A stretch of DNA of 64,000 nucleotides from a virus (taxonomy: Duplodnaviria > Caudoviricetes): positions 1,590-65,589 of IMG/VR virus record IMGVR_UViG_3300028602_002388; one strand, written 5' to 3'. Position 1 is the stretch's first letter. Each line of letters begins with the position of its first letter. Under the pieces are notes generated by a model. The model ran no database searches, was not told where the DNA came from, and saw only the letters and a list, made by a program, of their open reading frames with translations. Below are positions 11,541 to 30,320 of this stretch, in pieces. The translations under genes were made by a program, and so were the position numbers.

Positions 11541-12242
11541 ATGAAAGTGTTAACATTTGCAGGTCGCACTGGTTCTTTACCTCTTGACATTAAGATTGTT
11601 GAGAGGGGTGAGATAATTAAGGGTGCGGATGATAGGGATAAGATCATCTCCTATTTTACAGTTGAGGGAATAAACTATGCTTCTCACTATGGTATTTGTT
11701 CATTACGTAACGGTACAATAGGCAAGGCGATGGAAGATTCTCGTTTGCCTGTTCGTACAGGTTTTTTAAAAGGTGATGCGTTTAATTATGCAGTTTATCA
11801 TAAAGGAAGGTTTAACAAGGTTAATTGGTTAAGAAGTTATTCTAAGGGTGGCCATACTTTGTGGGAAGGGGAATTGGGAGAGGTGGTTGATGTAAGGGAT
11901 AATCCTTATTACTCCTTACCTCCTTATTGGCCTGATACCGATAATTGGGTAACAAAGCCATACGGGGCAGTGCCTACAACAGCCTTCAAGGATCGTTATT
12001 TGTATAAGTATATAAAATTTATCGAATGGTTTCCTTTGTATTATACAAAAGGGAGTATGGGGATGGAGATTGTTGAGGGTAATGGGAAATTTAAGTTGGA
12101 TAAGCGAAATATTTCAAATTCAACTTACATATTTAGCAAGAATGATATTGAACGTGGGCAGATAAAATTAAAATTCACATGCGTTCCTCTTGTCAATTCC
12201 GGAAGTACAGACACTGAACGTATCCTTACTTTAAGGTGGTAA
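11541..12242 (+). CDS. Hypothetical protein
   Basis: 233-aa ORF in the lysis cluster; no motif recognised. Confidence 0.5.
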   Translation: MKVLTFAGRTGSLPLDIKIVERGEIIKGADDRDKIISYFTVEGINYASHYGICSLRNGTIGKAMEDSRLPVRTGFLKGDAFNYAVYHKGRFNKVNWLRSYSKGGHTLWEGELGEVVDVRDNPYYSLPPYWPDTDNWVTKPYGAVPTTAFKDRYLYKYIKFIEWFPLYYTKGSMGMEIVEGNGKFKLDKRNISNSTYIFSKNDIERGQIKLKFTCVPLVNSGSTDTERILTLRW

Positions 12243-13637: not shown

Positions 13638-13982
13638 TTAAGTGTGATATTTTGTTCTTTTCTTCCTTTTTTTTAAAGAATCTTCTTGTAAAATTTCGTA
13701 GCTTTTGAGTGGAACAATGATTAAAATTTCTTCTTTATCTTTCTCATTTTTATCTTTCTCTTTAAGTTTGAATACCAATGTTTCAAAAGCATGTAATTCA
13801 TTTGTGATTGACAAAAATTTGTCTTCCATCACTTCACAATAATTCATGTCAAAAATAGTTTGAAACATTATTTTTAAGTTTGTTTTCAGTGTTTCTATCG
13901 TTTCTTTTTTGGAAGAAAAAAAACTTTTTTTCTCCATCTCAGCTTTAACAAGTTGAATAAATTCAAAATATTTATCTTTCAT
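13638..13982 (-). CDS. Hypothetical protein
   Basis: 114-aa ORF in a tightly packed - strand operon. Confidence 0.5.
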   Translation of the reverse strand: MKDKYFEFIQLVKAEMEKKSFFSSKKETIETLKTNLKIMFQTIFDMNYCEVMEDKFLSITNELHAFETLVFKLKEKDKNEKDKEEILIIVPLKSYEILQEDSLKKRKKRTKYHT

Positions 13983-14013
13983 AATTTAATTAATTTTTAA
14001 TTTTTATTTTTAT

Positions 14014-14310
14014 TTAATCTTTCCATGACTGATCAATCTTTAGGACGTATTCGAGTATATCTTTAACGTCGAAATTCCAAAGATCTGCAGTATTAATATC
14101 AATTTCTGTATTGCATACGGAAAAGGATGGTTGTGTAACACTGCTTCCAGGTAGATAAGCTACATACCATGAAAACGTAATCGAGAAGAATAATCCATCG
14201 TCGGAATAATCAACCGTTACGTATTGTCTTCCACTATATTTTTTCAGTTGTGAAAGAGCTTCTTGTTTTATTGTACTTACTATTTCTAATAAATAGTCTT
14301 GAAATTTCAT
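14014..14310 (-). CDS. Hypothetical protein
   Basis: 98-aa ORF overlapping its neighbour. Confidence 0.5.
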   Translation of the reverse strand: MKFQDYLLEIVSTIKQEALSQLKKYSGRQYVTVDYSDDGLFFSITFSWYVAYLPGSSVTQPSFSVCNTEIDINTADLWNFDVKDILEYVLKIDQSWKD

Positions 14311-14492
14311 CTGTCAATAATTTCAGTTTTTATATCAGTAATTATTGGTAACGAATTTCGTTTTCCAATTTTTATGAATGATAACACTTTTTCAAGTGCT
14401 TTTTTTTCACTTGAGATGTTATCAATAACGATGGAGTGGGGATATTTTTCTTTTTCACTCCATTTTAGTATGCAACATACTTTTATTGTCAT
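14307..14492 (-). CDS. Hypothetical protein
   Basis: 61-aa ORF, translationally coupled. Confidence 0.45.
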   Translation of the reverse strand: MTIKVCCILKWSEKEKYPHSIVIDNISSEKKALEKVLSFIKIGKRNSLPIITDIKTEIIDR

Positions 14493-14887
14493 TATTTTTT
14501 TAAATATGTTTTTATTATTTGTTTAAACCCATCAAATGAATAACAAACCTCACATTTATAATTTTGTTCTGTGAGTTTGTTCATCATTATTTTTTGGGCT
14601 ATTGTTGGTTTGTTGTTTCCAAACTTCATTTCAATAAATAGTCCGTTATGTTCTGAAGATGGCACAGAAAGAAATAGGTCTGGGACTCCTTTTTGTACTC
14701 CTTCATTTTTCAGCTTTTTTGCTGTTATTTTGTTTCGTAATCCTCCATTAGGAATTGCAAAAAGCAGTTCTTTAATATCATTATACTGAAGACGAAACCA
14801 CTTAACGCATTCCTGTTGAAGAATACTTTCATGTTGGTTAGTATTTTTTCTTTTACTATTTTTCAGTATTATTTTTTGATGGTTCAT
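14492..14887 (-). CDS. VRR-NUC domain nuclease
   Basis: ESILQQECVKWFRLQY, FAIPNGG, GVPDL and FIEMK motifs. Confidence 0.85.
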   Translation of the reverse strand: MNHQKIILKNSKRKNTNQHESILQQECVKWFRLQYNDIKELLFAIPNGGLRNKITAKKLKNEGVQKGVPDLFLSVPSSEHNGLFIEMKFGNNKPTIAQKIMMNKLTEQNYKCEVCYSFDGFKQIIKTYLKK

Positions 14888-15024
14888 TTTACTCCCCCTT
14901 CTCTTTTCCTTTTTTCCTCTTTATATAATTTATTATTTTCATTCAACTTTTTTGCTTTATAGAGCAAAAAAAGTAATGCCCCTAACAGGCTTAAATAGAT
15001 ACTGATTATTATTATCATTTTCAT
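14884..15024 (-). CDS. 46-aa membrane peptide (not in the ORF track)
   Basis: MKMIIIISIYLSLLGALLFLLYKAKKLNENNKLYKEEKRKREGGVK; its stop overlaps the VRR-NUC ATG. Confidence 0.55.
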   Translation of the reverse strand: MKMIIIISIYLSLLGALLFLLYKAKKLNENNKLYKEEKRKREGGVK

Positions 15025-15036
15025 GGCGATTTTTTT

Positions 15037-15855
15037 TTAAGAAAAAGGGTCGTTAATATCCCAATCGGGGTCATCTGCGAATAAATCTTCCATGTCATCA
15101 TCAGGTTTATTTACTTTTGAAGGGAAAATTTGCACTTTCTCTTTTGGAGGTGTATCTTCTACTGTATCTTCCACTTCTTTCTGAAGAGTATTTTTCATGG
15201 TATCAATAATGTTATCTTGTATAAAATAAGAAAAATAGTCGTTTAAATAGATTTGAAGTTCTTTATCTTTTTCGACTGCAATAGCTTCAATTTCATCTTT
15301 AAACTTATTTTCCAATGGTTTATTTTGAAATTCGGGAATTAGGTAATTTTTCCCTAATCTTGTTATCTTAACAAGATTATTTATTTCGATAACCCCTGTA
15401 TAGGGGTTTTTAATACTTTCCACATAGTTAGCAAGTGCCAAGCCTTGCAATTCTATTTTTACAATTTTTATTTTATAATTTTCATTTTCCTTGATGTGCA
15501 TCAAGGCATATATTATTTTGATCCAGCGGCCTCCGGCGGCTTTTACTTTGTCTTTAATTTCGTGCCACTTGCCGGTTATAGGGAAGTCATTACCTCCTCT
15601 ATTTCTAACTTTTACTTTAAAGTGTCCAGGCTCAGTGCCTTTCCACATGTTTGAATATATTCCACAATCGTACTTTGTGCTCCATCCTTTCACAGCTTGG
15701 AGTTCATCAAGCACGATAAAAGATATTGGCGGGGGTAATTCCCCCGATTCTTTTGTTATAAGGTTTGTAGTTTTAAACAAACCTTCCTCTGCCCTCCATT
15801 GCATAATTATCTGTGCAGGATCGGACGTTCTGTTTTGATATTTTGATCTACTCAT
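15037..15855 (-). CDS. Putative ssDNA-binding protein
   Basis: Acidic/aromatic C-tail DDMEDLFADDPDWDINDPF; next to recombination genes. Confidence 0.45.
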   Translation of the reverse strand: MSRSKYQNRTSDPAQIIMQWRAEEGLFKTTNLITKESGELPPPISFIVLDELQAVKGWSTKYDCGIYSNMWKGTEPGHFKVKVRNRGGNDFPITGKWHEIKDKVKAAGGRWIKIIYALMHIKENENYKIKIVKIELQGLALANYVESIKNPYTGVIEINNLVKITRLGKNYLIPEFQNKPLENKFKDEIEAIAVEKDKELQIYLNDYFSYFIQDNIIDTMKNTLQKEVEDTVEDTPPKEKVQIFPSKVNKPDDDMEDLFADDPDWDINDPFS

Positions 15856-15871
15856 AATAACATTGGTTTAA

Positions 15872-16375
15872 TTATTTATTTACAACATTAATTTTTTTTT
15901 TTAGAATTTCGTTTAATTCTTTTTTCATTATAATTGATTTATCATCTTCTTTATTTTCTTTTTTTGTTGGGAAAGAGATAAAGAATGTGTTTTCCGTGTC
16001 AATTTCTTCGATCGAGGCTGTTGTTCCGTATGCAATGCCAATTCCCATTTTGGCTATTGCTCTTGCGGTGGAGCATGTTTCGGCTACTTCAGCCGCAAAC
16101 TTACCCCACATTGTATCTTCTATTTTTTTACAGGAATGTCCTGTAAATAACAATGATTTCTGTTGGTAAGGGGATTCTCCTATAATAGGTATAGTAATAG
16201 TTGTTATTGCATGCCAGCTAACAATTTCTGGCACATAATTTAAAACTGTTTCTATTGAATAGACTGGGTATATCCTTTTTAGGGCTAACAGTCTTTCGTT
16301 AGCTGAAGAAAAATACCCATCTTGGGTTTTGTAATACTTTATCCCATCTTTGTCAATTTTTATATCTGTATTCAT
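15872..16375 (-). CDS. Putative ssDNA-annealing protein (Rad52/Sak-like)
   Basis: SANERL...FTGHS...EVAETCSTARAIAKMGIG...ASIEE pattern; near YqaJ. Confidence 0.55.
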   Translation of the reverse strand: MNTDIKIDKDGIKYYKTQDGYFSSANERLLALKRIYPVYSIETVLNYVPEIVSWHAITTITIPIIGESPYQQKSLLFTGHSCKKIEDTMWGKFAAEVAETCSTARAIAKMGIGIAYGTTASIEEIDTENTFFISFPTKKENKEDDKSIIMKKELNEILKKKINVVNK

Positions 16376-16386
16376 AATTTTGTGTT

Positions 16387-16674
16387 TTAATTAATTAATT
16401 GGAAGTATCTTTCATTTGCATTATAAACGCCTTTTTTTGTTTTATCTAATTTTTTTAAGATAGTTTTATCTTTAAGTACGCTTATCGCCCTTCTAACGGA
16501 CGTTAGCGGCCAATATTTGTTATTGGCAATACAGATGTAATAAACCTCGCTTGCCGTTAAAGGTTTATTTTCTTTTTGGAAGATGTTTTTAATAAAATCT
16601 TCCTGCGATAGAGCTTTGTTTTCTCTTATTGATAGTTCAGGTTCTTTTGTTAGGTTTGTATTAAAAAAAGTCAT
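16387..16674 (-). CDS. Winged HTH DNA-binding protein
   Basis: LTASEV...PLTSVRRAISVLKDKTILKK helix-turn-helix pattern. Confidence 0.55.
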   Translation of the reverse strand: MTFFNTNLTKEPELSIRENKALSQEDFIKNIFQKENKPLTASEVYYICIANNKYWPLTSVRRAISVLKDKTILKKLDKTKKGVYNANERYFQLIN

Positions 16675-17794
16675 TTTTCAACAAATTTTTTTGGATTAAT
16701 TCGGTTATTTGATTTTTATTAAATTTTTTTTTTAAATTGTTTCCCAATTGAGGAAGTGTACTTCCTTTGCGTACAAAGTAGCGCAAATTTCCTTCTTCCT
16801 CAAAATCTATATATTCACAATTATTGTGAAGAAATTCGATGAGAATTTCATTTTTATTTTTTTGTTTTATTTCGTTTAGTGTTGAAATAATTGATGCTAT
16901 ATAAGCATCTTTTTTACCTTTTTTCAAAAGTGTTTCAGACCCCATAATAGAGGTTTTATTTTTTCTATAGTTTTCCTTAACGAACATTTCGGCTGTTTTA
17001 TTACTACCGACTTTTGGTTCAAGCATTTGAATTTGATGCTTACATTCGTTATAATATTGTTCATCGCCGACCATTTGTGCTTTTTCCATTTGTTCTACCC
17101 ATTTTTTTGCAGGTAAAACATGGTCATACCAAAATTTATATGTTTGGTCAATGATAAGTTCACAAATCTCGTAATTTATTTCAAATGGGAATACATCTAA
17201 GTATCTCCCATTTTTCAATATTGCCAATTCTCCATAGTCAGCCTCTAACAGCAGTAAGGCTGTGTTCAATTGTGTTAAATAAGATGGGTCTATTCCGGCT
17301 TCCCATTTTGCCGCTGAGAACCCTTCTGTTGTTTTTATTTCAAGTACACCCTCTTTTTCGAGAGGCTTGCCTGTTATTAGACTAAAACCACCTTTTTTAT
17401 TTATCATCCTATCTACATTAACGAATAGCCAATCATACATTTTGTTTTTGACTATTGCATTTAATTTTTTACATCGTCTTATAATTTTTCCATTGTTTAT
17501 ATTATTAATGTAGCTTGGATTATTATATTCATCTTTTTTCCCATCCCATCCTTGCCAGCACATAGCTACATATTCTTCAAGGTTTCTACCATGGAACATT
17601 GCTTCATTATCTTTTATAGGTTTTTTAAAACCTAATTTTTGATAAAAAAGCACTAATGGGTCGGAATAGTCATCCGCATAAAGTACTGTTCGTACTTCTG
17701 ATGCGCCAATTCCGTTTAACCTGAATTGATGCCATTTCTCGCTTCGATAAGGTATTTGATATCGTTCGATATTTGTTTTTTGTTTTTTTTTCAT
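16661..17794 (-). CDS. yqaJ: YqaJ-like (lambda-exonuclease family) recombination nuclease
   Basis: WHQFRLNGIGASE, MFHGRNLEEYV, NVD and LEIKT motifs. Confidence 0.85.
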   Translation of the reverse strand: MKKKQKTNIERYQIPYRSEKWHQFRLNGIGASEVRTVLYADDYSDPLVLFYQKLGFKKPIKDNEAMFHGRNLEEYVAMCWQGWDGKKDEYNNPSYINNINNGKIIRRCKKLNAIVKNKMYDWLFVNVDRMINKKGGFSLITGKPLEKEGVLEIKTTEGFSAAKWEAGIDPSYLTQLNTALLLLEADYGELAILKNGRYLDVFPFEINYEICELIIDQTYKFWYDHVLPAKKWVEQMEKAQMVGDEQYYNECKHQIQMLEPKVGSNKTAEMFVKENYRKNKTSIMGSETLLKKGKKDAYIASIISTLNEIKQKNKNEILIEFLHNNCEYIDFEEEGNLRYFVRKGSTLPQLGNNLKKKFNKNQITELIQKNLLKNDFF

Positions 17795-17821
17795 GTTTAT
17801 TTAAATGTTTGTTTTTTGTTT

Positions 17822-17844
17822 TAACATTCGTAGATTCTATGTTA
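17822..17844 (+). other. attI-like recombination site 1 (TAACATTCGTAGATTCTATG|TTA)
   Basis: Same 23-mer family at four backbone/cassette junctions; TAACAT...ATGTTA inverted arms. Confidence 0.55.
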
Positions 17845-17853
17845 CCTGCAAGG

Positions 17854-18066
17854 CTAACATCCTGCATCACAAGTATAATTTGGCGTTTTAATTCCCAACA
17901 TAATTCTGAAAGTTCCGATAACTACTGCATAAGTAATCATATCATCTGACTTCCACTTTCTAAATCCTGTTGAATATGCTTTATGAACACCAGGAACTTT
18001 TTTGGCAGTTTTAGGAAATTTGTTAAACGCCAAATAATACTTCTTGTTTTGAAATGCTTTATACAT
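17854..18066 (-). CDS. Small cassette gene, hypothetical
   Basis: 70-aa ORF between attI-like sites 1 and 2. Confidence 0.5.
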   Translation of the reverse strand: MYKAFQNKKYYLAFNKFPKTAKKVPGVHKAYSTGFRKWKSDDMITYAVVIGTFRIMLGIKTPNYTCDAGC

Positions 18067-18118
18067 TATTTGTTTTTTGTTTTTTTTTCATGTTTATTTA
18101 AATGTTTGTTTTTTGTTT

Positions 18119-18141
18119 TAACATTCGTAGATTCTATGTTA
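18119..18141 (+). other. attI-like recombination site 2
   Basis: Identical to site 1. Confidence 0.55.
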
Positions 18142-18534
18142 CCTGCTACCGTATGGTGACACATCCTCAATCCCTGCTTCAATCATTCTACGCTTCAATG
18201 TGTTTGCAAAAAAATCATCTTGCGGGAAAAATGAATAATCACATTGCTTATATATTCGTGAAAGCCTATCAAGGACGCAGTTAAACCATTCCTTGTATTG
18301 CTCTTCCCAAGCATAATTCTGCAACTCAAAATAATTTATTGTAGTTTCATTTTTCCCAAATGGTTTATACCTCATCCCTTCAATGCGTTTTTCACGACCA
18401 ATCATAGTTTGGTAAGGTCTAACAATGTGAGACAAAATAAATTCGTGGTACTGGTCGTTACGAATAACGGCAGCAGGTAACACACGTTTGGCGTCATTTG
18501 GGCTGACGTCTAAGCCTTGAACATTAGTTTCCAT
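18139..18534 (-). CDS. Small cassette gene, hypothetical; its start lies inside an attC-like palindrome
   Basis: 131 aa; stop coincides with the GTTA of site 2. Confidence 0.6.
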   Translation of the reverse strand: METNVQGLDVSPNDAKRVLPAAVIRNDQYHEFILSHIVRPYQTMIGREKRIEGMRYKPFGKNETTINYFELQNYAWEEQYKEWFNCVLDRLSRIYKQCDYSFFPQDDFFANTLKRRMIEAGIEDVSPYGSR

Positions 18535-18605
18535 ATTTATCTTTTATTTTAAGTTGAACATTTGTTTTACAAAATCCCAAACGAATGCCAAGCGTGGGAA
18601 CGTTA
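18478..18605 (+). other. attC-like site (128 bp)
   Basis: TAAC-a-cacgtttggcgtcatttggg ... cccaaacgaatgccaagcgtg-ggaac-GTTA imperfect palindrome. Confidence 0.7.
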
Positions 18606-18838
18606 AGTAACTCCTCCGCTTTTAATTTCTTCTTCTCAATATCTTCAATTAAATAACCCCGCAGGCTTCTCTCGTCATGTGAAAAAAATCGTGCTTCATT
18701 AAGCATTTGGCGAAACAAGTTCATAAACTCAACCGTTGCCTCTGCTCGTTGTAAATCTGATAAACCAGCCGCTAACACACGGTTAGTGCAATTGCCGTTT
18801 TCGATAGTATTCGTAGTTTCTGCCAAGCGGGGTCTCAA
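18524..18838 (-). CDS. Small cassette gene; native start probably destroyed by the hairpin/CRISPR junction
   Basis: ...ETTNTIENGNCTNRVLAAG leader parallels METNV...KRVLPAA of the neighbour; half attC from 18773. Confidence 0.45.
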   Translation of the reverse strand: MRPRLAETTNTIENGNCTNRVLAAGLSDLQRAEATVEFMNLFRQMLNEARFFSHDERSLRGYLIEDIEKKKLKAEELLNVPTLGIRLGFCKTNVQLKIKDKYGN

Positions 18839-18872
18839 CTGCCGATCAGGCAGTTGAGACCCCGCTTGGCAG
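18820..18872. repeat. Perfect 24-bp inverted repeat with 5-nt loop, built from CRISPR repeat and spacer sequence
   Basis: ctgccaagcggggtctcaactgcc-gatca-ggcagttgagaccccgcttggcag. Confidence 0.95.
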
Positions 18873-19291
18873 CGAACCTGAATACGTCCAATTGCTAACT
18901 TTACATTAACTGCCTGATCGGCAATTGAGACTCATTACGTGTTAATGTATGTATCTGACCATTGCTAACTTTACATTAACTGCCTGATCGGCAATTGAGA
19001 CCTTTTTTCCTCTTTATATAATTTGTCATTGTCATTCACTAACTTTACATTAACTGCCTGATCGGCAATTGAGACTCAATCGGATAGCTCGGAAGATAGA
19101 TAGTTACTTTCGCTAACTTTACATTAACTGCCTGATCGGCAATTGAGACTAAACAAAGCTAAAGTCTCTAAAAGTCAGTTTGCTAACTTTACATTAACTG
19201 CCTGATCGGCAATTGAGACTATGTTTTTACTATTTGTTTAAACTCATCAAATGACTAACTTTACATTAACTGCCTGATTGGCAATTGAGAC
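18861..19291 (+). CRISPR. Orphan CRISPR array: 6 x 37-bp repeat CTAACTTTACATTAACTGCCTGATCGGCAATTGAGAC, 6 spacers of 33-37 bp, class 1 (type III-like)
   Basis: Repeats start at 18895, 18965, 19039, 19113, 19183 and 19255 (last has 1 mismatch). The TGCC/GGCA stem is followed by exactly 8 nt, ATTGAGAC. No cas genes in the window. Confidence 0.95.
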
Positions 19292-19308
19292 CCGACCCTA
19301 TTTCATTT

Positions 19309-19593
19309 CAAAGAACTTTTTCTCTAAAAAAAGGGAACGGGGTTTTATTTCCGTTCCCTTTACTCAACTAACATCTTAATTTAAAAACCCACATTGCAAA
19401 GGTAATAATATTATTTTTTAAAAAACAAGTTTTTAATGAATATTTTTTTAAATATTTTTTTAAACATATTGTTAATTTGTCTAAGTGTGTATGATTATCA
19501 ATAAGTTACATCATTATTTAGAATGGTTATAAAATATAAATTAAATGTTTAATAATGATTTTTTTAAGTTAAACATTCGTAAATTTTATGTTA
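19309..19593 (-). promoter_or_regulatory. Repeated promoter-terminator element, copy 1
   Basis: TACCTTTG (- strand 19397-19404) with an upstream TTG at Bacteroidota spacing; GGGAACGG/CCGTTCCC stem plus T7 about 65 nt downstream. Confidence 0.75.
19571..19593 (+). other. attI-like recombination site 3 (AAACATTCGTAAATTTTATG|TTA)
   Basis: 20/23 identical to sites 1 and 2; host-type cassette leader begins immediately after. Confidence 0.6.
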
Positions 19594-19818
19594 CCGCCAA
19601 GTGTAAAAAGACAGACGACAGCGGACAAATTGCTACTTAAAGACAGAAAAAGAAAAAACGATAAAATGAACAGCCAACGCACAAAACAGCACATTTGCAA
19701 ACCGCACAAGCTGACACACGACCGAAGTTTGCAAAAGAGCTGTTTTCTTGCCGACGCACCAGCGGATATTGATATATTTGCTGTTAATTGAAAATGAATT
19801 TTAAATAAGGACTAAATA

Positions 19819-21861
19819 ATGTTTGAACAGACTTTTAAAAACATAGATGACATTCTATACAAAGACGCAGGAGCGGACAGTGAATTGGATTATATCGAAC
19901 AAACTTCTTGGGTTTTATTTTTGCGTTATCTTGACGAATTGGAGAGAGAAAAAGCTGATGAAGAAGCTTTAAAAGGGAAAGATTACCAATTTATACTTGA
20001 CGAAGAATATCGTTGGCTAAATTGGGCAATGCCAAAAACAGCCGACGGAAAACTTGACCATCACAAAGCTATGACAGGCCCCGACCTAGTTAAGTTTGTC
20101 GATTTGAAACTATTCCCTTATTTGGCAGGATTTAAACAAAAAGCGGATAATCCCAAAACGATAGAATACAAGATTGGGGAGATTTTTAGTGAACTTAAAA
20201 ATAAAATTAAGAGTGGTTACAATCTTCGTGAGATTATCGAAATGACAGATGAACTGCCGAAAGGCAGTTCTAAAGATAAGCACGAACTTAGTCATTTATA
20301 TGAAACCAAACTTAAAAACATGGGGAATGCTGGTCGCAATGGTGGACAGTATTATACTCCTCGTCCATTAATTCGTGCTATGATTGAAGTTACACAACCT
20401 GTTATTGGAGAAAGAATATATGATGCAGCTTGTGGTAGTGCTGGTTTTTTATGTGAAGCCTATGGTTATTTGTTTAACAATATGGATAAAACCACAAATA
20501 ATCTAAAAATATTACAAGAGAACACGATGTATGGCAAAGAGAAAAAAAATCTTGCCTACATAATTGGAGTTATGAATATGATTTTGCACGGAATTGAAGC
20601 TCCAAATATTATTCATACAAATACACTTTCTGAAAATATTAGAGATATTCAGGAAAAAGACCGATTTGATGTAATACTAGCTAATCCACCTTTTGGTGGT
20701 AATGAACGTAAAGAAGTTCAACAAAATTTTGACATAAAAACAAGCGAAACAGCATCCTTGTTTTTGCAGCACTTTATTAAAAGTTTAAAAGCTGGTGGTA
20801 GAGCTGCTATTGTTATTAAGAATACATTTTTAAGTAATGCTGATAATGCTTCAATATCATTAAGAAAACATTTATTAGAGAGCTGCGATGTACATACAAT
20901 TCTTGATTTGCCTGTAGGTACATTTACGGGAGTTGGTCAAAAAACAATTGTATTGTTTTTCCAAAAAGGAATGCCGACTAAAAAAATATGGTACTATCAA
21001 TTAGAAATTGAAAGAAGTTTAGGAAAAAACAATCCTATCAACGATAACGATTTAAAAGATTTTCTTAATAAACAAAAAGGAAAGGAAGTTTCTTTAAATT
21101 CTTGGTTTGTAGATTTTGAACATATTAATAAAAAATCATACGATTTGTCGGTTAGCAATCCGAACAAGCAAATAGAAGTAATAAATATTTCTCCTAATGA
21201 ATTGATTTCTGAAATTAATAGAATAGATGCAGACTCAAAGAATCTTATTTCGGATGAAATTTTCAGAAGTACAATTGAATCACTTCTTTCTCATAATTCA
21301 AACAGTTGGGAAAAGACTACATTGTCAAAATGTTGCGATTTTTATAATGGGAAAGCACATGAAAAAGTTATAGATGATGATGGGGACTTTATTGTTGTAA
21401 ATTCTAAATTCATTTCATCTGAAGGAGAAATCTTTAAAAAGACGAGAGAACAATTATTCCCTTTGTATGTCGGTGATATTGTAATGGTGATGAGTGATGT
21501 ACCAAATGGGAAAGCACTCGCAAAGTGTTTCATTATTGATGAAGACGATTTATATACTTTAAACCAACGAATTTGTGCAATAAGAACGAATAAATTTGAT
21601 AAGCGTTTTTTATACTATCAGCTAAATAGACACAAACACTTACTTGCATTTAACAATGGAGAAAATCAAACAAATTTAAGAAAGGAAGACATATTAAATA
21701 CGCCTTTAGTTATTCCTCCAATGCAAGTACAAAAAGAAATCGTAGAAAAATTGGATAACATTTTTGATATAATTAATCAGGCAATTCAGAATCAACAGAG
21801 AATTTTAGACACTTTAGTACAAATGAAATTTAGCATTTTAAACAATACATTTACTGATTAG
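19819..21861 (+). CDS. hsdM: Type I R-M N6-adenine methyltransferase fused to a single specificity (TRD) domain
   Basis: GQYYTPRPLI, YDAACGSAGF and ILANPPF motifs; C-terminal HsdS-like WEKTTLSKCC...LVIPPMQVQKEIVEKLD. Confidence 0.9.
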   Translation: MFEQTFKNIDDILYKDAGADSELDYIEQTSWVLFLRYLDELEREKADEEALKGKDYQFILDEEYRWLNWAMPKTADGKLDHHKAMTGPDLVKFVDLKLFPYLAGFKQKADNPKTIEYKIGEIFSELKNKIKSGYNLREIIEMTDELPKGSSKDKHELSHLYETKLKNMGNAGRNGGQYYTPRPLIRAMIEVTQPVIGERIYDAACGSAGFLCEAYGYLFNNMDKTTNNLKILQENTMYGKEKKNLAYIIGVMNMILHGIEAPNIIHTNTLSENIRDIQEKDRFDVILANPPFGGNERKEVQQNFDIKTSETASLFLQHFIKSLKAGGRAAIVIKNTFLSNADNASISLRKHLLESCDVHTILDLPVGTFTGVGQKTIVLFFQKGMPTKKIWYYQLEIERSLGKNNPINDNDLKDFLNKQKGKEVSLNSWFVDFEHINKKSYDLSVSNPNKQIEVINISPNELISEINRIDADSKNLISDEIFRSTIESLLSHNSNSWEKTTLSKCCDFYNGKAHEKVIDDDGDFIVVNSKFISSEGEIFKKTREQLFPLYVGDIVMVMSDVPNGKALAKCFIIDEDDLYTLNQRICAIRTNKFDKRFLYYQLNRHKHLLAFNNGENQTNLRKEDILNTPLVIPPMQVQKEIVEKLDNIFDIINQAIQNQQRILDTLVQMKFSILNNTFTD

Positions 21862-21883
21862 CCTATTTGCAAAGCCTTATTTT

Positions 21884-22705
21884 ATGAACGAAACCGAAAC
21901 AAGAGCAGAATTAATCGACCCTGTTTTAAAAGCAGCAGGTTGGGGCGTTGTAGAAGGAAGTCGCATTCGCATGGAGTTTCCTATTAACAAAGGTCGATTA
22001 ATCGGGCATGGTCAGCGAAGCAAGCCCGACAAAGCAGATTATATATTGCAATACAAAAACAGGAATCTTGCAGTAATTGAAGCCAAGGCTAGAGATAAAT
22101 ACTATACAGAAGGAGTCGGACAAGCCAAAGATTACGCTGAAAGGTTACAAGTTCGTTTTACGTACAGTACAAACGGTTTACAAATTTATCGCATTGATAT
22201 GCAGGAAGGAATTGAAGGAGATGTAACTTCATATCCTACTCCTGATGAACTTTGGGCTTTGACCTTTGGCGACCAAGACAAATTGCAACCACTTTCAGCC
22301 GTTTGGCGTGATAAATTATTGTCCGTTCCATTCGAAGATAGAAGTGGAACATGGCAGCCACGATACTATCAAGAAAATGCAATAACTAAGGTTTTAGAAG
22401 CCATTTCAAATAATGAACCTCGTATTTTATTAACCCTTGCAACAGGAACAGGTAAAACAGCTATTGCTTTTCAAATTGCATGGAAACTGTTTCAGGCAAA
22501 ATGGAATATAAACAAAGACGGACTAAGAAGTCCAAGAATTTTGTTCTTAGCCGATAGAAATATATTAGCAGACCAAGCTTTTAATGCTTTTTCTGCATTT
22601 GAAGAAGATGCTTTGGTTCGTATCAATCCAAGCGACATAAAGAAAAAAGGGAAAGTGCCTAAAAACGGCAGTATCTTTTTTACCATTTTCCAAACATTTA
22701 ATTAA
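21884..22705 (+). pseudogene. hsdR: Type I restriction subunit, truncated after Walker A (273 aa)
   Basis: EcoEI-like N-terminus, ADY...AVIEAK, LATGTGKT; stops at TIFQTFN before the DEAD box. Confidence 0.85.
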
Positions 22706-22806
22706 TTTTCATGATTTTTCCCAACTCTTTTAAGACATTCTTTAATAATTACATTTTGCAGAAATAAGATTGTTCAATTTTTTCCGAGAGTGCAAAAAAA
22801 ATAAAA

Positions 22807-23574
22807 TCATGCTGCAAAATAGATGTTATTACATTTTCTTTCATACACTTTTTTATTAATGAGAACAAACCTATTTACGATTTCAGGATTCCCTTTCAAT
22901 AGAAACGAAAGGTCTTTTATTTCGCACAAGTATTCGTGCCTTCGTTCTATGATAAGGAGGCCTTTTTTTTCTAATTCCAGCATTCTTTGGCAGGTTGATG
23001 CTGGGGATTTATAACCTAAAATCTTCTGGAGCTTTCTTACGGAGATGGAGTATTTAGAGTTTTGGAGTAACGCTTTGCAGTATTTTGTCAGTCTCGCAGG
23101 CACTCTTCTTTTACCTTCTCTATACATCTGTTGTTGAAGACAAGGTTTGAGGTAGTACAAAATGCACAACCTCATGAGTTCCAACTTGTTTAGGCATCTA
23201 AAGGTTATTTTTTTAATACCTAAGTTAGGAGTGTATTTGGCATACAAAGTGTTTAAGGAAGTAATTCTGTAGGCTGTGTACGTTGGTTTGAGCCAACCGT
23301 TAGCCGTCATTTTATTTATTAGTCTTTGTAGTGTATCTTCTTTTATGCCTAATTCAACGGCAATAGCAGGTATTTCGGAACGTTTAAATGAACCCCCTGC
23401 ATTATCATTATTTATTTTTTTCTTAATTAGTTTACCGTTTTTTCCTTTAATAATTTTTTCTCCGGAATAAACATTTTTTCTAAATTTTATGTAGATAAAC
23501 TTATTAAATGTATCTAACAACCCCAAACTGTTTAGAGTTCCATAGAATATTACAGTTTTTTGGTTGTTAGTCAT
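22807..23574 (-). CDS. Putative DNA-binding/replication protein with HTH motifs
   Basis: SEIPAIAVELGIKEDTLQRLI and SVRKLQKILGYKSPAS HTH-like segments. Confidence 0.4.
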   Translation of the reverse strand: MTNNQKTVIFYGTLNSLGLLDTFNKFIYIKFRKNVYSGEKIIKGKNGKLIKKKINNDNAGGSFKRSEIPAIAVELGIKEDTLQRLINKMTANGWLKPTYTAYRITSLNTLYAKYTPNLGIKKITFRCLNKLELMRLCILYYLKPCLQQQMYREGKRRVPARLTKYCKALLQNSKYSISVRKLQKILGYKSPASTCQRMLELEKKGLLIIERRHEYLCEIKDLSFLLKGNPEIVNRFVLINKKVYERKCNNIYFAA

Positions 23575-23903
23575 TATTGAAGGTTCTTAATCATTTTTTT
23601 ATGCCATTCTTTATATTTTATTGGCATAACTATTTCTACGTCATTACCTGCTTCATAATAGAGGGAGGCCAGGCGTTTATCAAAGATTTGGCCATTAATA
23701 TAGCCAGGTTTGTCTTTAATAAGATAATACTTGCGCAAATGATTTCTTAACCGATAGAAAGTAAGTTGTTTAGATTCTATTGCTTCAGATAAATGTTTGA
23801 CATGTTCATGCCAAACTTCATCTTTATAAACAATATTACCTTTTCGGTCAAAAAATTGATAACCAATAAATTCAACAAAAAATTTTGCGTAGGTGCTAAA
23901 CAT
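23574..23903 (-). CDS. Hypothetical protein
   Basis: 109-aa ORF coupled to the next gene. Confidence 0.5.
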   Translation of the reverse strand: MFSTYAKFFVEFIGYQFFDRKGNIVYKDEVWHEHVKHLSEAIESKQLTFYRLRNHLRKYYLIKDKPGYINGQIFDKRLASLYYEAGNDVEIVMPIKYKEWHKKMIKNLQ

Positions 23904-24110
23904 ATGTGCTAAACATAAATTAATTCAAATGAAATTTTGTAAAAAAGGAGGAGGTATTTACCTCCTCCAATAAAACAACAAAAAAGAAACTGATTGTTAG
24001 CTTGTAATGGACAAACATGTAATTAAGGACAAACCAAATCAACAAAATTAAAAGAAAGCAGGAGGAGGCTAACAATCTTTATTTTAATTATTTTTTTAAC
24101 AATGAATAAT

Positions 24111-24406
24111 CAAAGAACTTTTTCTCTAAAAAAAAGGGAACGGGGTTTTATTTCCGTTCCCTTTACTCAACTAACATCTTAATTTAAAAACCCATGAAAA
24201 AAATCACGTTACAAAGATAATATTATTTTTAAAAAAACAAGTTTTTAATGAATATTTTTTTAAACATTTTTTTTAAACATATTGTTAATTTGTCTAAGTG
24301 TGTATGATTATCAATAAGTTACATCATTATTTAGAATGGTTATAAAATATAAATTAAATGTTTAATAATGATTTTTTTAAGTTAAACATTCGTAAATTTT
24401 ATGTTA
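24111..24406 (-). promoter_or_regulatory. Repeated promoter-terminator element, copy 2
   Basis: Nearly identical to copy 1; TATCTTTG at 24212-24219 (- strand). Confidence 0.75.
24384..24406 (+). other. attI-like recombination site 4
   Basis: Identical to site 3; followed by G|TTAGC, the start of the type III cassette. Confidence 0.6.
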
Positions 24407-24793
24407 GCTGCAAGCGTATTACGACACGACACAACAGAAAATGACCGTTAAACAGACAAGAAAAGAGTAAACCATTTTGACAGGTGACAAACAACATAAA
24501 GACCAAATTTCAACAGGACATTTGAGCCGACACTCAAACCGACCTAATGTTTTTTATTTTTTTCCCACCGCACATTTTTTAAAACCATTTTTGAAAGACA
24601 GCCAACGCACAGCAAGCACATTTGCATTTTTGCCAACCCGCAAGCCGACCCAAAAAATGCAAAAGAGCTTGCTCTTGCCTACGCACCCAAGCCCACCCAC
24701 CACCCTACCAGCGAACAAGTGGATTTCCAGAGAAAAACGGGCAGACAACGGTATTAAATTTTAACTTTGACAATTGGAAAATTGAAGTAATAA

Positions 24794-27703
24794 ATGACGA
24801 CAAAAACGGAAACAAAACAGTTTCAATATGAAATACAAAGCTATCAGGAGGACTGCGTTACAAACATTGTAAGTCTTTTTGAAAGTCTTCGCCAAAAAGT
24901 AAATTTTGGTGAGGTGCTGACAGCACACCACAAAAAGAATAAATACAATTTTCCAGTTCAAGACACTAAAAACATTGATATAATAATGGAAACGGGAACG
25001 GGAAAAACGTTCACGTTTATAAAAACCATTTTTGAACTGAGTAAGCATTTCGGATATAAAAAGTTTATCGTTCTTATTCCGACTGTTCCAATTCGTGAGG
25101 GAACAAAAACAAACTTAGAGGACACCAAAGATTACTTTAAAAGCTTTTACGCCAACGAGAAAGAAAAGGAAATTGAAACCTTTGTTTATGAAGGTGGAAA
25201 TATTTCAGCCGTTAGGCAATTTATCGGAACTTCTCATTTATCGGTTTTGGTAATGACTCCAAGCTCATTCAGCCACAAAGACAATATCTTAAACCGACCT
25301 TTAGAAAAAGACATTAACACACCTGAATTGTTCGTAAACAATCAGGAACCACCAAAATCATATTTGGAATGTTTGAAACGACTGAATCCAATTGTGATAA
25401 TGGACGAACCTCACCGTTTTGAGGGTAACGCTTTTAAAACCTACTTTGACGGTTTTGAAAATTACTTTTTGCGTTTCGGGGCAACATACCCAAAAAAGAA
25501 AGACAGTTTAGTTCTTTCTAATGTGGCTTATGTGTTGGACAGCATTTCTTCTTTCCGACAAAGTTTGGTTAAGAAAATTGTGGTTTACACGCAAGATGTT
25601 GTTGAAAACACCGACACACTCATAGGCATTGACAACAAAAAAGCCATTGTAAGCACACTGACCAACGGAATTATTGCAAGACGTGAATTAGGCGTTGGCT
25701 CGGTTTTCAATGGAAAGAGCATAAAGAAAATAAACAAGGACACGATTGTTTTAGCGGACGACACAATAGAAAAAGTTGATTATTCTTTGTCAGACGAATC
25801 ACTGCGGGCAATGATTAAAGAAACAATTAAAATTCATTTTGAAAAGGAAAAGGGATTGTTTGAGCAAGGCGTAAAAGCACTCACCTTGTTTTTTATGGAA
25901 AGCGACACCAGTTTATTTCGTGGCGACAATCCTAAAATCAAAAACATATTTGAAGAAGAATACAAAAAGCTATACAGCGAAATAGTTAGCAAACTCGACC
26001 AATCAAGCGAGTATTATAAATTCTTGCAAAACGACTTTGACAGCGATAACCATTTGCAAGTTCACAAAGGATATTTTTCAGGTGATAAAGGAAACGCAGA
26101 CGAAAAAGTAAAAGCAGGAGTTGACGAAATTCTGAAAGACAAAAAGAAACTACTTTCTTTTGAAAGTCCAACACGTTTCATTTTCTCCATTTGGGCATTA
26201 CAAGAAGGTTGGGACAACCCGAATGTATTTACCATTTGCAAACTATCCAACCAAGGAAGCGAAATATCTAAACTGCAACAAATTGGGCGAGGTTTACGCA
26301 TTTGCGTAAATCAAAACTTACAGCGTAACACGCTGAAAAATCTAAATGACGACCAGGAGGCATTTTGGAAAATCAATAATCTTGATGTTGTTGTTTCCAA
26401 TAAAGAACACGGTTTTGTTGAGGCAATTCAAAACGAAATTTTAAGCAACTCATTCCTGATTGCTGAAACCTTTACAGAGCAAGAACTCATTAAGACACTC
26501 AAAGAAAAATCGGGCTTTGATGATGACACAGTAGTTACTTTGGTGGATGATATTCTGAAAGAAAAGAAAATGATTGTTCGCAAGGCGATTGTTGACGGAC
26601 AAAAGATTTATGAAAAATCGCCTGAGTTTTCTGCAATTCTGAAAGAACAAAATCTGCCCGAAGAACAAGTGAAAGCCATTGAAAGCTTATTTGCGACTGA
26701 TACAAACACCTATGTTCAGAAAGCCGAGAAGAAAAAAGAGAAAAAGAAAGTTTTCATAAAATCAACGCACCTGCAAGAGTTTCAAAATTTGTGGAATACA
26801 ATCAACAAGAACGCCTTTTATGTTTTAGATTCTTTAAGCGAAGAACAGGAAAGCCAACTGATACAAAACATAAAAGCACAAATTGAAGCTGTAAACATTG
26901 AAGAAATTTTATTGCAAACCATTCGTGCAGAATTGAACGTAAACAAAATTGGCGAACAAGGAGCAATTACTGAAAAACTAACCGATACCGTTTCATACAA
27001 AAGCAAAGTTGATTATTTGGAATTGGTTCGCACTTTATCCAACAACACCAAAACGCCTATTTCCTTTGTGGTAAAAGTTTTCAATGCTTTGAGTAATGAT
27101 TTCAAAACCAAAATGCTTTGCAATAATCCTGAACAGGCACAAAGAGAAATTTCCGAAATAATCAACAAGAACTTAATTGCTATGCTAAAAGCAAACATTA
27201 AGTATGACGGAATTAACGGAACAGGTTTGCCAAATGTATTCAAAACTGAAAAAGGCAAAACTTATTTAGACACAGGAAGCGTTGGGAAATTCCAAAAGGA
27301 AATTGCAAACGACTTTTCTCTGAAAACTAAATGGGTATTTGAAGAAGTGATTGAATACGACAGTGATTTTGAATTGGAAATTGTGGAGCAAGACCCCGAC
27401 ATTGACAGTATTGAGATTTTCGGCAAACTTCCACGCCTTAAAATCAAAACTCCTTTAGGCGATTACAACCCTGATTTTTGCTATGCAATCAAAAGCACCG
27501 AAGGCAACAAAATATTACTTGTAGTAGAAGCCAAAGGCTATAAATCGTCAACGGCAATCCCAGTAGATGAAAAAGGGAAGATTGATTTTGCTAAAAAGTA
27601 TTTTGAAGCCTTATCAGAACACTACAAAGACCAAGACATAAAAATTTCATTTAAAGAACGTATCAATAAAACGCAATTGGCGGCATTGATAAACAACGCA
27701 TAA
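24794..27703 (+). CDS. res: Type III restriction endonuclease Res
   Basis: METGTGKT, DEPH, QEGWDNPN, QQIGRGLR and YNPDF...VEAKG; appears intact. Confidence 0.92.
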   Translation: MTTKTETKQFQYEIQSYQEDCVTNIVSLFESLRQKVNFGEVLTAHHKKNKYNFPVQDTKNIDIIMETGTGKTFTFIKTIFELSKHFGYKKFIVLIPTVPIREGTKTNLEDTKDYFKSFYANEKEKEIETFVYEGGNISAVRQFIGTSHLSVLVMTPSSFSHKDNILNRPLEKDINTPELFVNNQEPPKSYLECLKRLNPIVIMDEPHRFEGNAFKTYFDGFENYFLRFGATYPKKKDSLVLSNVAYVLDSISSFRQSLVKKIVVYTQDVVENTDTLIGIDNKKAIVSTLTNGIIARRELGVGSVFNGKSIKKINKDTIVLADDTIEKVDYSLSDESLRAMIKETIKIHFEKEKGLFEQGVKALTLFFMESDTSLFRGDNPKIKNIFEEEYKKLYSEIVSKLDQSSEYYKFLQNDFDSDNHLQVHKGYFSGDKGNADEKVKAGVDEILKDKKKLLSFESPTRFIFSIWALQEGWDNPNVFTICKLSNQGSEISKLQQIGRGLRICVNQNLQRNTLKNLNDDQEAFWKINNLDVVVSNKEHGFVEAIQNEILSNSFLIAETFTEQELIKTLKEKSGFDDDTVVTLVDDILKEKKMIVRKAIVDGQKIYEKSPEFSAILKEQNLPEEQVKAIESLFATDTNTYVQKAEKKKEKKKVFIKSTHLQEFQNLWNTINKNAFYVLDSLSEEQESQLIQNIKAQIEAVNIEEILLQTIRAELNVNKIGEQGAITEKLTDTVSYKSKVDYLELVRTLSNNTKTPISFVVKVFNALSNDFKTKMLCNNPEQAQREISEIINKNLIAMLKANIKYDGINGTGLPNVFKTEKGKTYLDTGSVGKFQKEIANDFSLKTKWVFEEVIEYDSDFELEIVEQDPDIDSIEIFGKLPRLKIKTPLGDYNPDFCYAIKSTEGNKILLVVEAKGYKSSTAIPVDEKGKIDFAKKYFEALSEHYKDQDIKISFKERINKTQLAALINNA

Positions 27704-27707
27704 GACA

Positions 27708-29615
27708 ATGGCAGAACAAGATTTTATAAAAGCAGGCTTTACTGTAGTTGGAACTGAAACCAACGAAAACAAACTTTTGAGTTTTCTGAAAGAGAACTAC
27801 CCGAATGTAATTAAAGACACCGAAATAAATATTGAAGAACTGAAAGCCGTTTTGGGTTTGCCAATTGACGAAAAAGTAAACGGCTACGGTTTAAACTTTG
27901 TGGGTAGAAACTTTGCAAGGGCAAAATATGCCCAAAAGACTGAAAAGGAATTAAGCCTCAACAGCTCGTTGAGCAAGAATATTGATACAACCGAAAATTT
28001 GGTGCTGAAAGGCGACAACCTCGACAGCTTGAAAATCCTAAAAAACCATTATAGCGGTCAAATAAAATGTATATATATCGACCCACCTTACAATACAGAG
28101 AAAGACGAGTTTGTTTATCCTGACAGATTCGACAAAGAAGAAGCGGAAGTTTTGGGATTGGCAAATTTGAGCGAAAGCGATTTTGCAAGAATGGATTTTA
28201 GTTTTAAAACCAAGAAAAGCCACAACGGTTGGTTAGCTTTTATGTATCCGCGTTTGTTATTAGCAAGAGACCTGTTAAGCAATGATGGTGCGATTTTCAT
28301 AAGCATTGATGACAATGAACAATCCAACTTGAAATTACTTTGCGATGATGTTTTTGGAGAAGAAAATTTTGTTGAAATATTTTCTTGGACGAAAACAGCA
28401 ACTCCACCAGCATTATCTCATAAGTCAAGGAAAACAAACGAATATATTTTATGCTACGAGAAAAATAAAAACAGTTATAAGTATTTTGGTGAAGAACTCG
28501 ATGGTGGTGACCAACCATTATTAAATGATGGAAACAAAGTTGGTCAATTAATTATTCCAAAAGACAAAGTTAAGTTCAATTTAGAAGATGGCGTTTACCA
28601 AGCAGGAACTTACCATAGAATCAAACTTTTAGAAACAATTGAAATAAAAGACAAAGTATCAAACAAAGATTTATCAATAGAAGGCAGATTTAAATGGCAA
28701 CAATCTTTCCTTGATGCAGAAGTAAAAAAAGGAACTACATTCATTGTAAAGTCTAAAAAGTTCTCAGTAAGGTTTCAGCGTTTTGAAGATGAAAGCTATA
28801 AAACCCCTACAAATCATATTAGAGACAAGATTATCACACCGCTTTTAGATAAAGAGAACGGAAACGTTGACACCAACGAGACAGCTTCAAGCCAGCTTGA
28901 AGAATTGTTTGGAAGCAAAGTATTTGATTTTTCTAAACCTGTTTCACTCATAAAGTATCTTATTAATTTCCTTGTAAATGATGATGATATAATACTTGAC
29001 TTCTTTGCAGGTTCAGGCACAACAGGTCACGCAGTAATGGAATTAAATAAAGACGGTGGTAACAGACGATATATTCTCTGTCAAATTGATGAACCAATTG
29101 ACCCAGCAAAGAAAAAAGAAGCGTATGACTTTTGCCTTGCTAACAACTTGGAGCCAGTTATCTCAAGCATAACTATTGAGCGGTTGAAAAGAGCAGGTGA
29201 GAAAATTGTTAAAGACGTTGAAAACGAAAATAGCAAAAACGAACTATTTGACGAAGACAAAAAACAAGTTCCCGATATTGGCTTTAAAGTATTTGACAGC
29301 GTAGAAGCACCAAAATTGAAAGTGGATGATAAAGGACAAATTTCAATTACCGAGAATGAAACAGATGCCTTGAGTCGTATTTATAATATGATTTTCACCG
29401 TTGGTTTAGACGAGCCAACACAAGTTCCTGAAGAAGTAGTGAAAGATTGCATTTACAAAATCGGAAACCATTATTACATAACCAACAGCGAGAAAATAAC
29501 CAGTGATGATTATTCAAACGCTATTAAAAACGGCAAAGTATTCATTGACGGTTGGACAGCGAGCCTAAACGGAACATTGCAGAACTATAAAGAAGATGTG
29601 AAGATTGTTTTTTAA
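27708..29615 (+). CDS. mod: Type III methyltransferase Mod
   Basis: IDPPYN, WLAFMYPRL, FISIDDNE and DFFAGSGTTGHA motifs. Confidence 0.93.
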   Translation: MAEQDFIKAGFTVVGTETNENKLLSFLKENYPNVIKDTEINIEELKAVLGLPIDEKVNGYGLNFVGRNFARAKYAQKTEKELSLNSSLSKNIDTTENLVLKGDNLDSLKILKNHYSGQIKCIYIDPPYNTEKDEFVYPDRFDKEEAEVLGLANLSESDFARMDFSFKTKKSHNGWLAFMYPRLLLARDLLSNDGAIFISIDDNEQSNLKLLCDDVFGEENFVEIFSWTKTATPPALSHKSRKTNEYILCYEKNKNSYKYFGEELDGGDQPLLNDGNKVGQLIIPKDKVKFNLEDGVYQAGTYHRIKLLETIEIKDKVSNKDLSIEGRFKWQQSFLDAEVKKGTTFIVKSKKFSVRFQRFEDESYKTPTNHIRDKIITPLLDKENGNVDTNETASSQLEELFGSKVFDFSKPVSLIKYLINFLVNDDDIILDFFAGSGTTGHAVMELNKDGGNRRYILCQIDEPIDPAKKKEAYDFCLANNLEPVISSITIERLKRAGEKIVKDVENENSKNELFDEDKKQVPDIGFKVFDSVEAPKLKVDDKGQISITENETDALSRIYNMIFTVGLDEPTQVPEEVVKDCIYKIGNHYYITNSEKITSDDYSNAIKNGKVFIDGWTASLNGTLQNYKEDVKIVF

Positions 29616-29966: not shown

Positions 29967-29973
29967 AACAAGG

Positions 29974-30297: not shown

Positions 30298-30320
30298 TAT
30301 CGGTATTTACCTGCCCAGTT

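Follow-up and report, generated by a model that had tools for sequence, protein, structure and literature searches.

The window considered here, a stretch of 64,000 nucleotides from the phage record IMGVR_UViG_3300028602_002388 of IMG/VR (Duplodnaviria; Caudoviricetes; positions 1,590 to 65,589 of that record), carries at 18837-19291 a fragment of a CRISPR array that is shared with the type III-B arrays of Lentimicrobium-like bacteria. The fragment has neither a leader nor adjacent cas genes, five of its six spacers match the genome of the very phage that carries it, and it lies antisense to a predicted phage promoter. The reading favoured here is that RNA made from the - strand of this leaderless fragment is a decoy for the type III-B complexes of the host, in which every target copy is marked as self; it is put forward as a serious possibility rather than as the probable answer, and a functionless passenger is nearly as likely.

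The array and its cognate type III-B system

The array consists of six 37-nt repeats, which begin at 18895, 18965, 19039, 19113, 19183 and 19255, and of a partial seventh at the left edge, with six spacers among them (33, 37, 37, 33 and 35 nt for spacers 1-5). Five of the full repeats are exact and the last has a single C-to-T change, and zero such repeats are expected in shuffled sequences. Regular direct repeats with unique spacers of like length (33-37 nt) mark the element as a CRISPR array. The repeat ends at its 3′ side with ATTGAGAC after a short stem-loop, and ATTGAGAC is the 8-nt tag of the CRISPR RNA (crRNA). The ~420-bp leader of the host array has no counterpart left of the phage array, and no cas gene is present among the phage open reading frames (ORFs) scanned (most of those of at least 170 aa); lacking both, the phage array is an orphan fragment and not an autonomously expressed locus. 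An assembly artefact was ruled out for the array itself, since assemblies of JGI and of ENA have the same junctions in 16 independent contigs. The left edge of the array is a fold-back palindrome (Table 1), in which the stem-loop of the repeat itself forms the centre, partial repeat 0 and the start of spacer 0 form the right arm, and an inverted copy forms the left arm; it is predicted to fold with ~-62 kcal/mol on either strand (z ~-12). Its loop is inverted in strains L020, L036 and L038 (L numbers denote contigs and loci), and the whole palindrome is dispensable because it is absent from several strains (L024/25, L031, L034, L035, L037 and L039).

Cas-linked arrays of Lentimicrobium-like chromosomes are built on exactly this repeat, which was found in one species-representative genome, a metagenome-assembled genome (MAG) of Lentimicrobium sp. 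(G001), and at 15 metagenome loci. In the host locus L016, genes for Cas10/Cmr2, Cmr3, Cmr4, Cmr5, Cmr6, a Cas6-reverse transcriptase-Cas1 (Cas6-RT-Cas1) fusion and Cas2 are followed by the same repeat in the same direction, and an AT-rich leader of ~420 bp lies between Cas2 and the array. The chromosomal contigs L043-L045 have cmr4-6, the Cas6-RT-Cas1 fusion gene and cas2 upstream of the array, and only cas2 is left at this place in L046. Downstream of the array, L043, L044 and L046 share Dus and UvrB with the contig of the Lentimicrobium MAG. RT-Cas1 was not found in the incomplete assembly of this MAG, and the repeat is absent from the other genomes of its family. The host Cas10 has the palm motif GGED and no HD domain. 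By its gene content, the cognate system is assigned to type III-B, and the crRNA sense in the window is the + strand, because host arrays read in the same direction as their cas genes. Window positions 18965-19291 are identical to positions 11653-11979 of the host array L016 and also to L043, L045 and L046, so that spacers 2-5, together with their flanking repeat variants, are host spacers 7-10 in the same order.

Most of what a previous sequence-only reading had stated of the array is confirmed by these comparisons. The stem followed by ATTGAGAC at the repeat end is present, the functional orientation is + as judged from a host locus in which cas genes, leader and array are all co-directional, the leader is indeed gone, and the same spacers do occur in host arrays, identical and co-linear for spacers 2-5. 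A DNA-targeting type I system, which that reading had named as a refutation, is at odds with the cmr genes and Cas6-RT-Cas1 of the host loci. Two of its four refuting conditions, hosts without the spacers and a type I system, thus did not come true, and all of its premises at the level of sequence hold. Two statements need correction. The array starts further left than 18895, at 18837, with the partial repeat and spacer 0; and the last repeat is not a degenerate trailer repeat, since its C-to-T variant is the normal form of host arrays, found there at the same position after spacer 5.

Spacers directed against the carrier

Both ends of the record lie inside the same 12-bp minisatellite encoding QQTE/QQAE within one giant ORF (window 1-4449 and 60854-64000; L042 1-1589). 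This makes the genome essentially complete, or closed, at ~66 kb, and the completeness estimate of 74% for the record is too low. Within this genome, five of the six phage-borne spacers find a match, three of them (0, 1 and 4) perfectly, in keeping with the earlier suggestion that the spacers were raised against this phage; spacer 3 is without a target there. Spacers 2 and 5 differ from the carrier protospacers at three and two positions, respectively, in all strains. With crRNAs of + sense, four of the five matched spacers are complementary to predicted mRNA, and the other, spacer 4, is not targetable through the mRNA of the giant gene because it has the same sense. Such a proportion fits a system that acquires spacers in either orientation, as described in PMC5576922.

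The flanks of the native protospacers agree with the tag at only one to three of eight positions, and these protospacers are therefore activating targets, whereas the antisense array agrees at all eight. Among the ~10 spacers that are found only in the host, the newest (leader-proximal) one alone matches the phage, and only as a near-match (Table 1), against five of six for the phage-borne spacers (Fisher p = 0.008).

A predicted promoter module facing the antisense strand

On the - strand to the right of the array, TTG and a TAnnTTTG box (19404-19397) are separated by 21 nt, lie 106 nt from the last repeat and are aimed at the array. TTG (-33) and TAnnTTTG (-7) at a spacing of ~19-21 nt, in a conserved intergenic position, make up the promoter recognised by the primary sigma factor of Bacteroidota, and the element is accordingly a predicted promoter. 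Taken alone, the TAnnTTTG motif is about as dense in this genome as expected by chance (96 copies vs 82 in shuffles), and a second - strand box within spacer 4 (19161) is a chance one. Between the promoter and the array stands an intrinsic terminator of the - strand with an 11-bp stem (19361-19330) followed by seven U to ~19322. Promoter, AT-rich upstream region and terminator together form a conserved module of ~250 bp, which is present in four copies in the genome, each directed into a gene block (Table 1), and which in IMG/VR is otherwise found only in another fragment of the same phage. The module is either a multi-copy gene for a small RNA of ~70 nt or a promoter controlled by antitermination. 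Partial copies are located at 36740-36803 and 37032-37092, and the full copies head gene blocks beside accessory islands.

The genes left of the array are all on the - strand, and the only - strand boxes upstream of the block containing the RecE-like exonuclease gene (18838-13638) are the one at 19404 and the chance one inside spacer 4. In a sister phage of ~70% identity (L047), the DnaB helicase gene adjoins RecE, with no array, module or restriction-modification (R-M) genes between them. In the phage of the window, by contrast, 13 kb separate the two genes (17795-30900), a lineage-specific accessory island that contains, besides the array and small cassettes, a gene for type I HsdMS, an HsdR fragment of 273 aa and a complete type III res/mod pair. 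By this comparison, the RecE operon was severed from its ancestral promoter on the DnaB side by the accessory insertion. The RecE block needs a local promoter, because the 13 kb of accessory DNA between RecE and DnaB include opposing R-M genes, and readthrough of the terminator into the array is plausible. The sequence-only reading had recognised both a - strand TAnnTTTG element at ~19400 firing into the array and a terminator hairpin between them, which it gave as its caveat. The box with its TTG and the hairpin, a good intrinsic terminator, are both real, but the caveat weighs less than it did, as the RecE operon has no other upstream box except that in spacer 4.

The sense strand looks silent from its sequence signals: the host leader is missing, no + strand TAnnTTTG box is found upstream of the array, and the genes to the left all read in the - direction. 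On the + strand, a near-consensus -7-like box is found in every repeat. A + strand match of 11/12 to a sigma-70 promoter (TTGAGA, 16 nt, TATAAT), which is not of the Bacteroidota type, is formed at 18995-19022 by the end of repeat 2 and spacer 2.

Table 1. Positions in the window of the array, the promoter modules, the matched protospacers and the neighbouring genes
Feature	Position	Strand	Remarks
Fold-back palindrome, left array edge	18807-18885		37-nt arms; perfect 24-bp core 18820-18843 / 18849-18872
Partial repeat 0	18837-18860	+	3′ 24 nt of the repeat: stem-loop and 8-nt tag region
Spacer 0	18861-18894	+	Reverse complement of 66-nt tandem repeat in gene 9428-10519
Six repeats and spacers 1-5	18895-19291	+	Spacers at 18932-18964, 19002-19038, 19076-19112, 19150-19182, 19220-19254
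Module copy 1	19308-19560	-	-33 TTG ~19428-19426, -7 box 19404-19397; predicted to fire toward the array
Module copy 2	24110-24373	-	92% identical to copy 1
Module copy 3	43131-43339	+	
Module copy 4	44252-44497	+	Upstream of structural gene block
Spacer 0 protospacers (five)	9877-10174	+	FNIP-repeat gene 9428-10519; three perfect, two with one mismatch; crRNA complementary to mRNA
Spacer 1 protospacer	54783-54815	+	33/33; gene 54532-55257; crRNA complementary to mRNA
Spacer 2 protospacer	14909-14945	-	34/37; small - strand ORF 14884-15024
Spacer 4 protospacer	61953-61985	+	33/33; giant gene from 60854; same sense as mRNA
Spacer 5 protospacer	14505-14539	-	33/35; VRR-NUC gene
Near-match to newest (leader-proximal) host-array spacer	22752-22786	+	23-nt exact core and flanks, 3-nt indel
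Leftward operon, downstream of array on - strand	13638-18838	-	Small cassette genes, RecE-like exonuclease, VRR-NUC nuclease; targets of spacers 2 and 5
RecE-like exonuclease gene	16661-17794	-	Within leftward operon
VRR-NUC nuclease gene	14492-14887	-	Within leftward operon

Retention of the array in the phage population

Of 17 phage contigs, which come from at least 15 samples, 16 retain the array, always at the same site and in the same orientation. Its content varies through duplication and deletion of units, from zero to eight repeats (up to seven spacer units), and three different microhomology deletions at the left edge have removed the palindrome and spared spacers. The phage and its spacer-bearing host co-occur in the same samples, and 194 blocks of the assembly collection have an entry for the identical RecE-like protein. 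The array-less L040 was considered as the ancestral empty site and rejected, since it keeps the left palindrome arm and is thus a deletion derivative; the true empty state is seen only in the sister phage, in which DnaB abuts RecE. A retention gradient toward the promoter was likewise given up: the sole spacer to differ is spacer 5, present in 14 of 15 contig variants where each of the others is present in 9-11, and the strains are too closely related.

A self-marked decoy and its alternatives

In the mechanism proposed here, a fragment of the host array would have been captured by recombination into the accessory island of a phage of ~66 kb without an integrase, and would have come to lie between the module and the RecE operon in the direction opposite to crRNA sense, so that the phage would make no crRNAs against itself. 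Readthrough from the module promoter into the operon would transcribe the array backwards, and the array RNA would form the leader of a transcript for DNA metabolism, presumably an early one. By sequence, the - strand of every unit has full spacer complementarity and an 8/8 anti-tag for crRNAs that the host encodes, exactly as the sequence-only reading had it when it described an antisense RNA of targets each followed by the complement of the tag; the RNA would thus present exact copies of phage targets, each with the full complement of the 8-nt tag behind it. Full pairing of tag and anti-tag at the 3′ flank of a target RNA is known to repress Cas10 activation while leaving RNA cleavage intact (PMC7214462). 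Cmr complexes with matching crRNAs would therefore bind and cut the decoy with Cas10 remaining off, and the few complexes bearing each anti-phage guide would be occupied early in infection. In addition, the - strand RNA is complementary to the repeats of the host pre-crRNA, and pairing between them could lower the supply of crRNA; some hosts do make antisense "anti-crRNAs", whose presence can go with lower crRNA levels (PMC3479195). This fuller account, in which the phage keeps a stolen anti-self type III-B memory, transcribes it backwards from an early promoter, lets anti-tagged target mimics absorb matching complexes without triggering Cas10 and may also pair with pre-crRNA, is possible but less likely than not. 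The anti-self content of the phage-borne spacers in comparison with the host-only ones counts for the decoy, and so does the persistence of the array in nearly all contigs despite the deletions at its left edge.

Several observations speak against a decoy. The terminator between promoter and array is a canonical one, and the module may be a self-contained small-RNA unit, because copies 2 and 4 have an additional promoter-like box before their genes. Little can be read from the antisense orientation, which is expected anyway: an anti-self array expressed in the sense direction would kill the phage in Cmr-positive hosts, and an arrangement so suicidal would never be seen. The targets of spacers 2 and 5 are on the same transcript as the decoy, which sets their ratio at 1:1. 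The array is down to one or two units in L036 and L039 and gone in L040, and a host variant without cmr and RT-cas1 in a phage-containing sample indicates another route to coexistence. Only a single capture event is visible, with the same six spacers recurring in all strains, and newer host spacers, including the one that nearly matches the phage, are not mirrored in the phage. The clustering of anti-self spacers would also arise if the host had acquired them in one burst from one phage, and a passenger origin of the kind known from phage PhiAP1.1 explains the same anatomy.

Such a passenger would be a recombination-derived fragment sitting in a permissive island in the only orientation that is not suicidal, and any antisense RNA from it would have no measurable effect on immunity. 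This explanation is possible, though it too is short of probable. Experiments with PhiAP1.1 show a phage taking up host repeat-spacer units and carrying them at one site, the DnaB-RecE island is highly plastic, with cassettes and R-M genes swapped among strains, and drift of the array down to one unit and to none, a lone capture that was never updated and an anti-self content following naturally from an acquisition burst are all what a passenger would give. However, 400-470 bp of non-coding repeat DNA have been retained in 16 of 17 contigs from many samples in a region prone to deletion, and the three left-edge deletions, which are independent, spared spacers. Moreover, anti-self spacers are risky given any sense transcription, and any antisense RNA in a host with these crRNAs must physically be bound by them. 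A different role, which seems improbable, would be that of a recombination handle: the shared segment of ~330 bp would offer homology for insertion into the host array or for spacer exchange with it, through a RecE-type system or an unrecognised recombinase. This would disrupt or edit the host array, or shuttle spacers between hosts. It is favoured by the contig L038 (ENA ERZ27249271, at a contig end), in which the left flank of the phage and spacers 1-5 are continuous with the next spacer of the host, host modules and host flank, by the repeat variant of the spacer 2-5 block in host arrays, which is unlike its neighbours as if imported, by the RecE-like exonuclease encoded next to the array, and again by the precedent of PhiAP1.1. 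Yet Pfam and PHROGs searches of the scanned ORFs (most of those of at least 170 aa), over essentially the whole genome, gave no integrase and no serine recombinase, and a prophage in the array is seen in none of 24 host contigs. L038, the one junction-like contig, ends in host modules that are multi-copy; it may represent a prophage junction or a recombinant phage, or may have been misassembled as a chimera across the shared 327 bp. A double crossover between spacer and protospacer as the route of insertion was tried and is unsupported: the protospacers are 4-43 kb away, and no spacer of the host arrays examined equals the right flank of the phage array.

The remaining two alternatives are both very unlikely, the second slightly more so. 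If the array were a working mini-array in the sense direction, its + strand crRNAs would act with the host Cmr proteins against sister phages and exclude superinfection. The mismatches of spacers 2 and 5 to the carrier in all strains, the lack of a self target for spacer 3, the -7-like boxes in the repeats and the sigma-70-like promoter from repeat 2 and spacer 2 would suit such a function. Spacers 0, 1 and 4, however, match the carrier perfectly, and 0 and 1 are complementary to carrier mRNAs; type III systems tolerate two to three mismatches, which makes escape from them by point mutation hard. There is also neither a leader nor a consensus Bacteroidota promoter on the + strand, and transcription from the module would converge on the array. 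If instead the fold-back hairpin and the repeats served as a repeat mimic similar to the solitary-repeat RNAs called Racrs, they would trap Cas6-RT-Cas1 whatever the spacers. Racrs are an established class (PMC10651486), and the centre of the palindrome is the repeat stem-loop with its tag, on a strand that depends on the strain; but many strains that keep the spacers are without the palindrome, and Racrs are solitary repeats in sense, whereas the expressed strand here would carry antisense repeats.

Relation to known CRISPR-derived elements of phages

The feature joins the known phage-borne CRISPR arrays; should the decoy mechanism be demonstrated, it would constitute an anti-CRISPR of a new kind. 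The literature does describe phage mini-arrays, Racrs, viral crRNA-like regulators and prophages that integrate into arrays, and neither a phage-borne anti-self array nor an anti-tag decoy is described in the literature searched. The closest relative in anatomy is PhiAP1.1 of Streptococcus pyogenes (bioRxiv 10.1101/2020.10.09.333658), in which, as here, a variable number of host repeat-spacer units is found at one fixed phage site and can be exchanged between phage and host arrays. The system concerned is of type II-A there; PhiAP1.1 integrates into CRISPR repeats and captures units by integrase-driven excision at attP, which carries repeat-spacer units into phage particles (bioRxiv 10.1101/2020.10.09.333658), and its captured spacers were not reported to be anti-self. 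In the present phage, by contrast, no integrase acting on a repeat-derived attP was found among the ORFs scanned, the system is type III-B, the carrier is the target of five of the six spacers, and the units are placed in antisense orientation behind a promoter. Virus-borne mini-CRISPR arrays (PMC11656645) are likewise cas-less, have host-type repeats on a viral genome and depend on the Cas proteins of the host; they target competing viruses and are sense-expressed, whereas the present array has no leader, shares its spacers with the host array and does not spare its carrier, with three perfect matches and two of three and two mismatches.

Racrs (PMC10651486) and Cracrs (bioRxiv 10.1101/2024.10.29.618823) are, like the proposed decoy, phage-encoded non-coding RNAs derived from CRISPR and directed against CRISPR immunity. 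Racrs are solitary sense repeats that trap Cas proteins, and Cracrs are sense guides that redirect Cas proteins to the promoters of cas or toxin genes; antisense repeat-spacer units and the tag/anti-tag self signal are found in neither. The six repeats with spacers and the promoter facing the antisense strand thus set the array apart from solitary-repeat Racrs, as the sequence-only reading had argued, and the main text of the Racr paper (PMC10651486) does not mention type III. An antisense transcript fully complementary to a crRNA, including the 8-nt tag, is shared with the non-cognate target RNA of type III studies (PMC7214462) and with host anti-crRNAs (PMC3479195). The known antisense array RNAs come from the host's own array, as a safeguard or a by-product, whereas here the template is on the phage and the phage would benefit.

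The known roles of phage-borne arrays and of lone repeats are attack on rival viruses and the trapping of Cas proteins, respectively; a host memory of the carrier itself is a different situation. Few anti-CRISPR families directed against type III have been described, and PMC11662646 (2024) counts three among more than 80. If the decoy works, the tag/anti-tag self-check would be an exploitable weak point of these systems, and a simple programmable off-switch for individual type III guides would follow from it. The array would then be a sequence-specific and heritable RNA anti-CRISPR, updatable in principle, that turns a safeguard against autoimmunity against the system itself. Even as a passenger, it is a natural record, in many samples, of array DNA moving between a host and a phage without an integrase, and the same communities hold both partners as well as a cas-deleted host variant.

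The phage, its accessory island and variants of the host locus

The window encodes a large terminase, a DnaB helicase, a RecE-like exonuclease, tail and virion proteins, and the phage looks lytic, with a Lentimicrobium-like bacterium as its host. No Rfam family was matched anywhere within the window, public phage records contain nothing similar to the array locus, and the array repeat, exact or degenerate, is absent from every other record in IMG/VR. In the same database, the RecE-like protein is without relatives and its 131-aa neighbour has one weak partial relative only (L029). Strains exchange methyltransferase, R-M and other cassettes within the island. A 75-nt repeat (17770-17844 and 18067-18141) marks the starts of cassette genes, and the cassette with the 131-aa gene (18141-18602) is missing in L020, L025, L027 and L040. 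A TnpB/IS605 OrfB gene is inserted at the equivalent of window ~13.6 kb in L031, L034, L035 and L037.

Deletion has removed the cmr genes and most of Cas6-RT-Cas1 from the host variant L046 (positions 2871-5276; JGI sample 3300061426), which comes from the same sample as the phage contig L034. Of Cas1, the last 59 aa are left, fused to a GEVED-domain protein, and cas2 and the full array are kept. Just upstream of cas10 in L016, a SLATT-domain membrane protein (435-989) and a 536-aa protein without assignment (913-2523) are encoded, candidates for a signalling effector and Cmr1. Host arrays end in repeated modules (L016 11980-13100; L012 4280-4515; L013 10470-10890; L019, L021 and L028), which are also present in the Lentimicrobium MAG and at a second host locus beside tRNA-Ser. 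Each of these trailer modules consists of an AT-rich leader-like stretch, a repeat, a conserved 38-nt hairpin pseudo-spacer, a degenerate repeat ending in the canonical ATTGAAAC, a 13-bp hairpin and a third degenerate repeat. The pseudo-spacer modules have no target among the loci examined, the 12-nt loop of the pseudo-spacer is found in both orientations, and the modules may encode crRNA-like regulatory RNAs.

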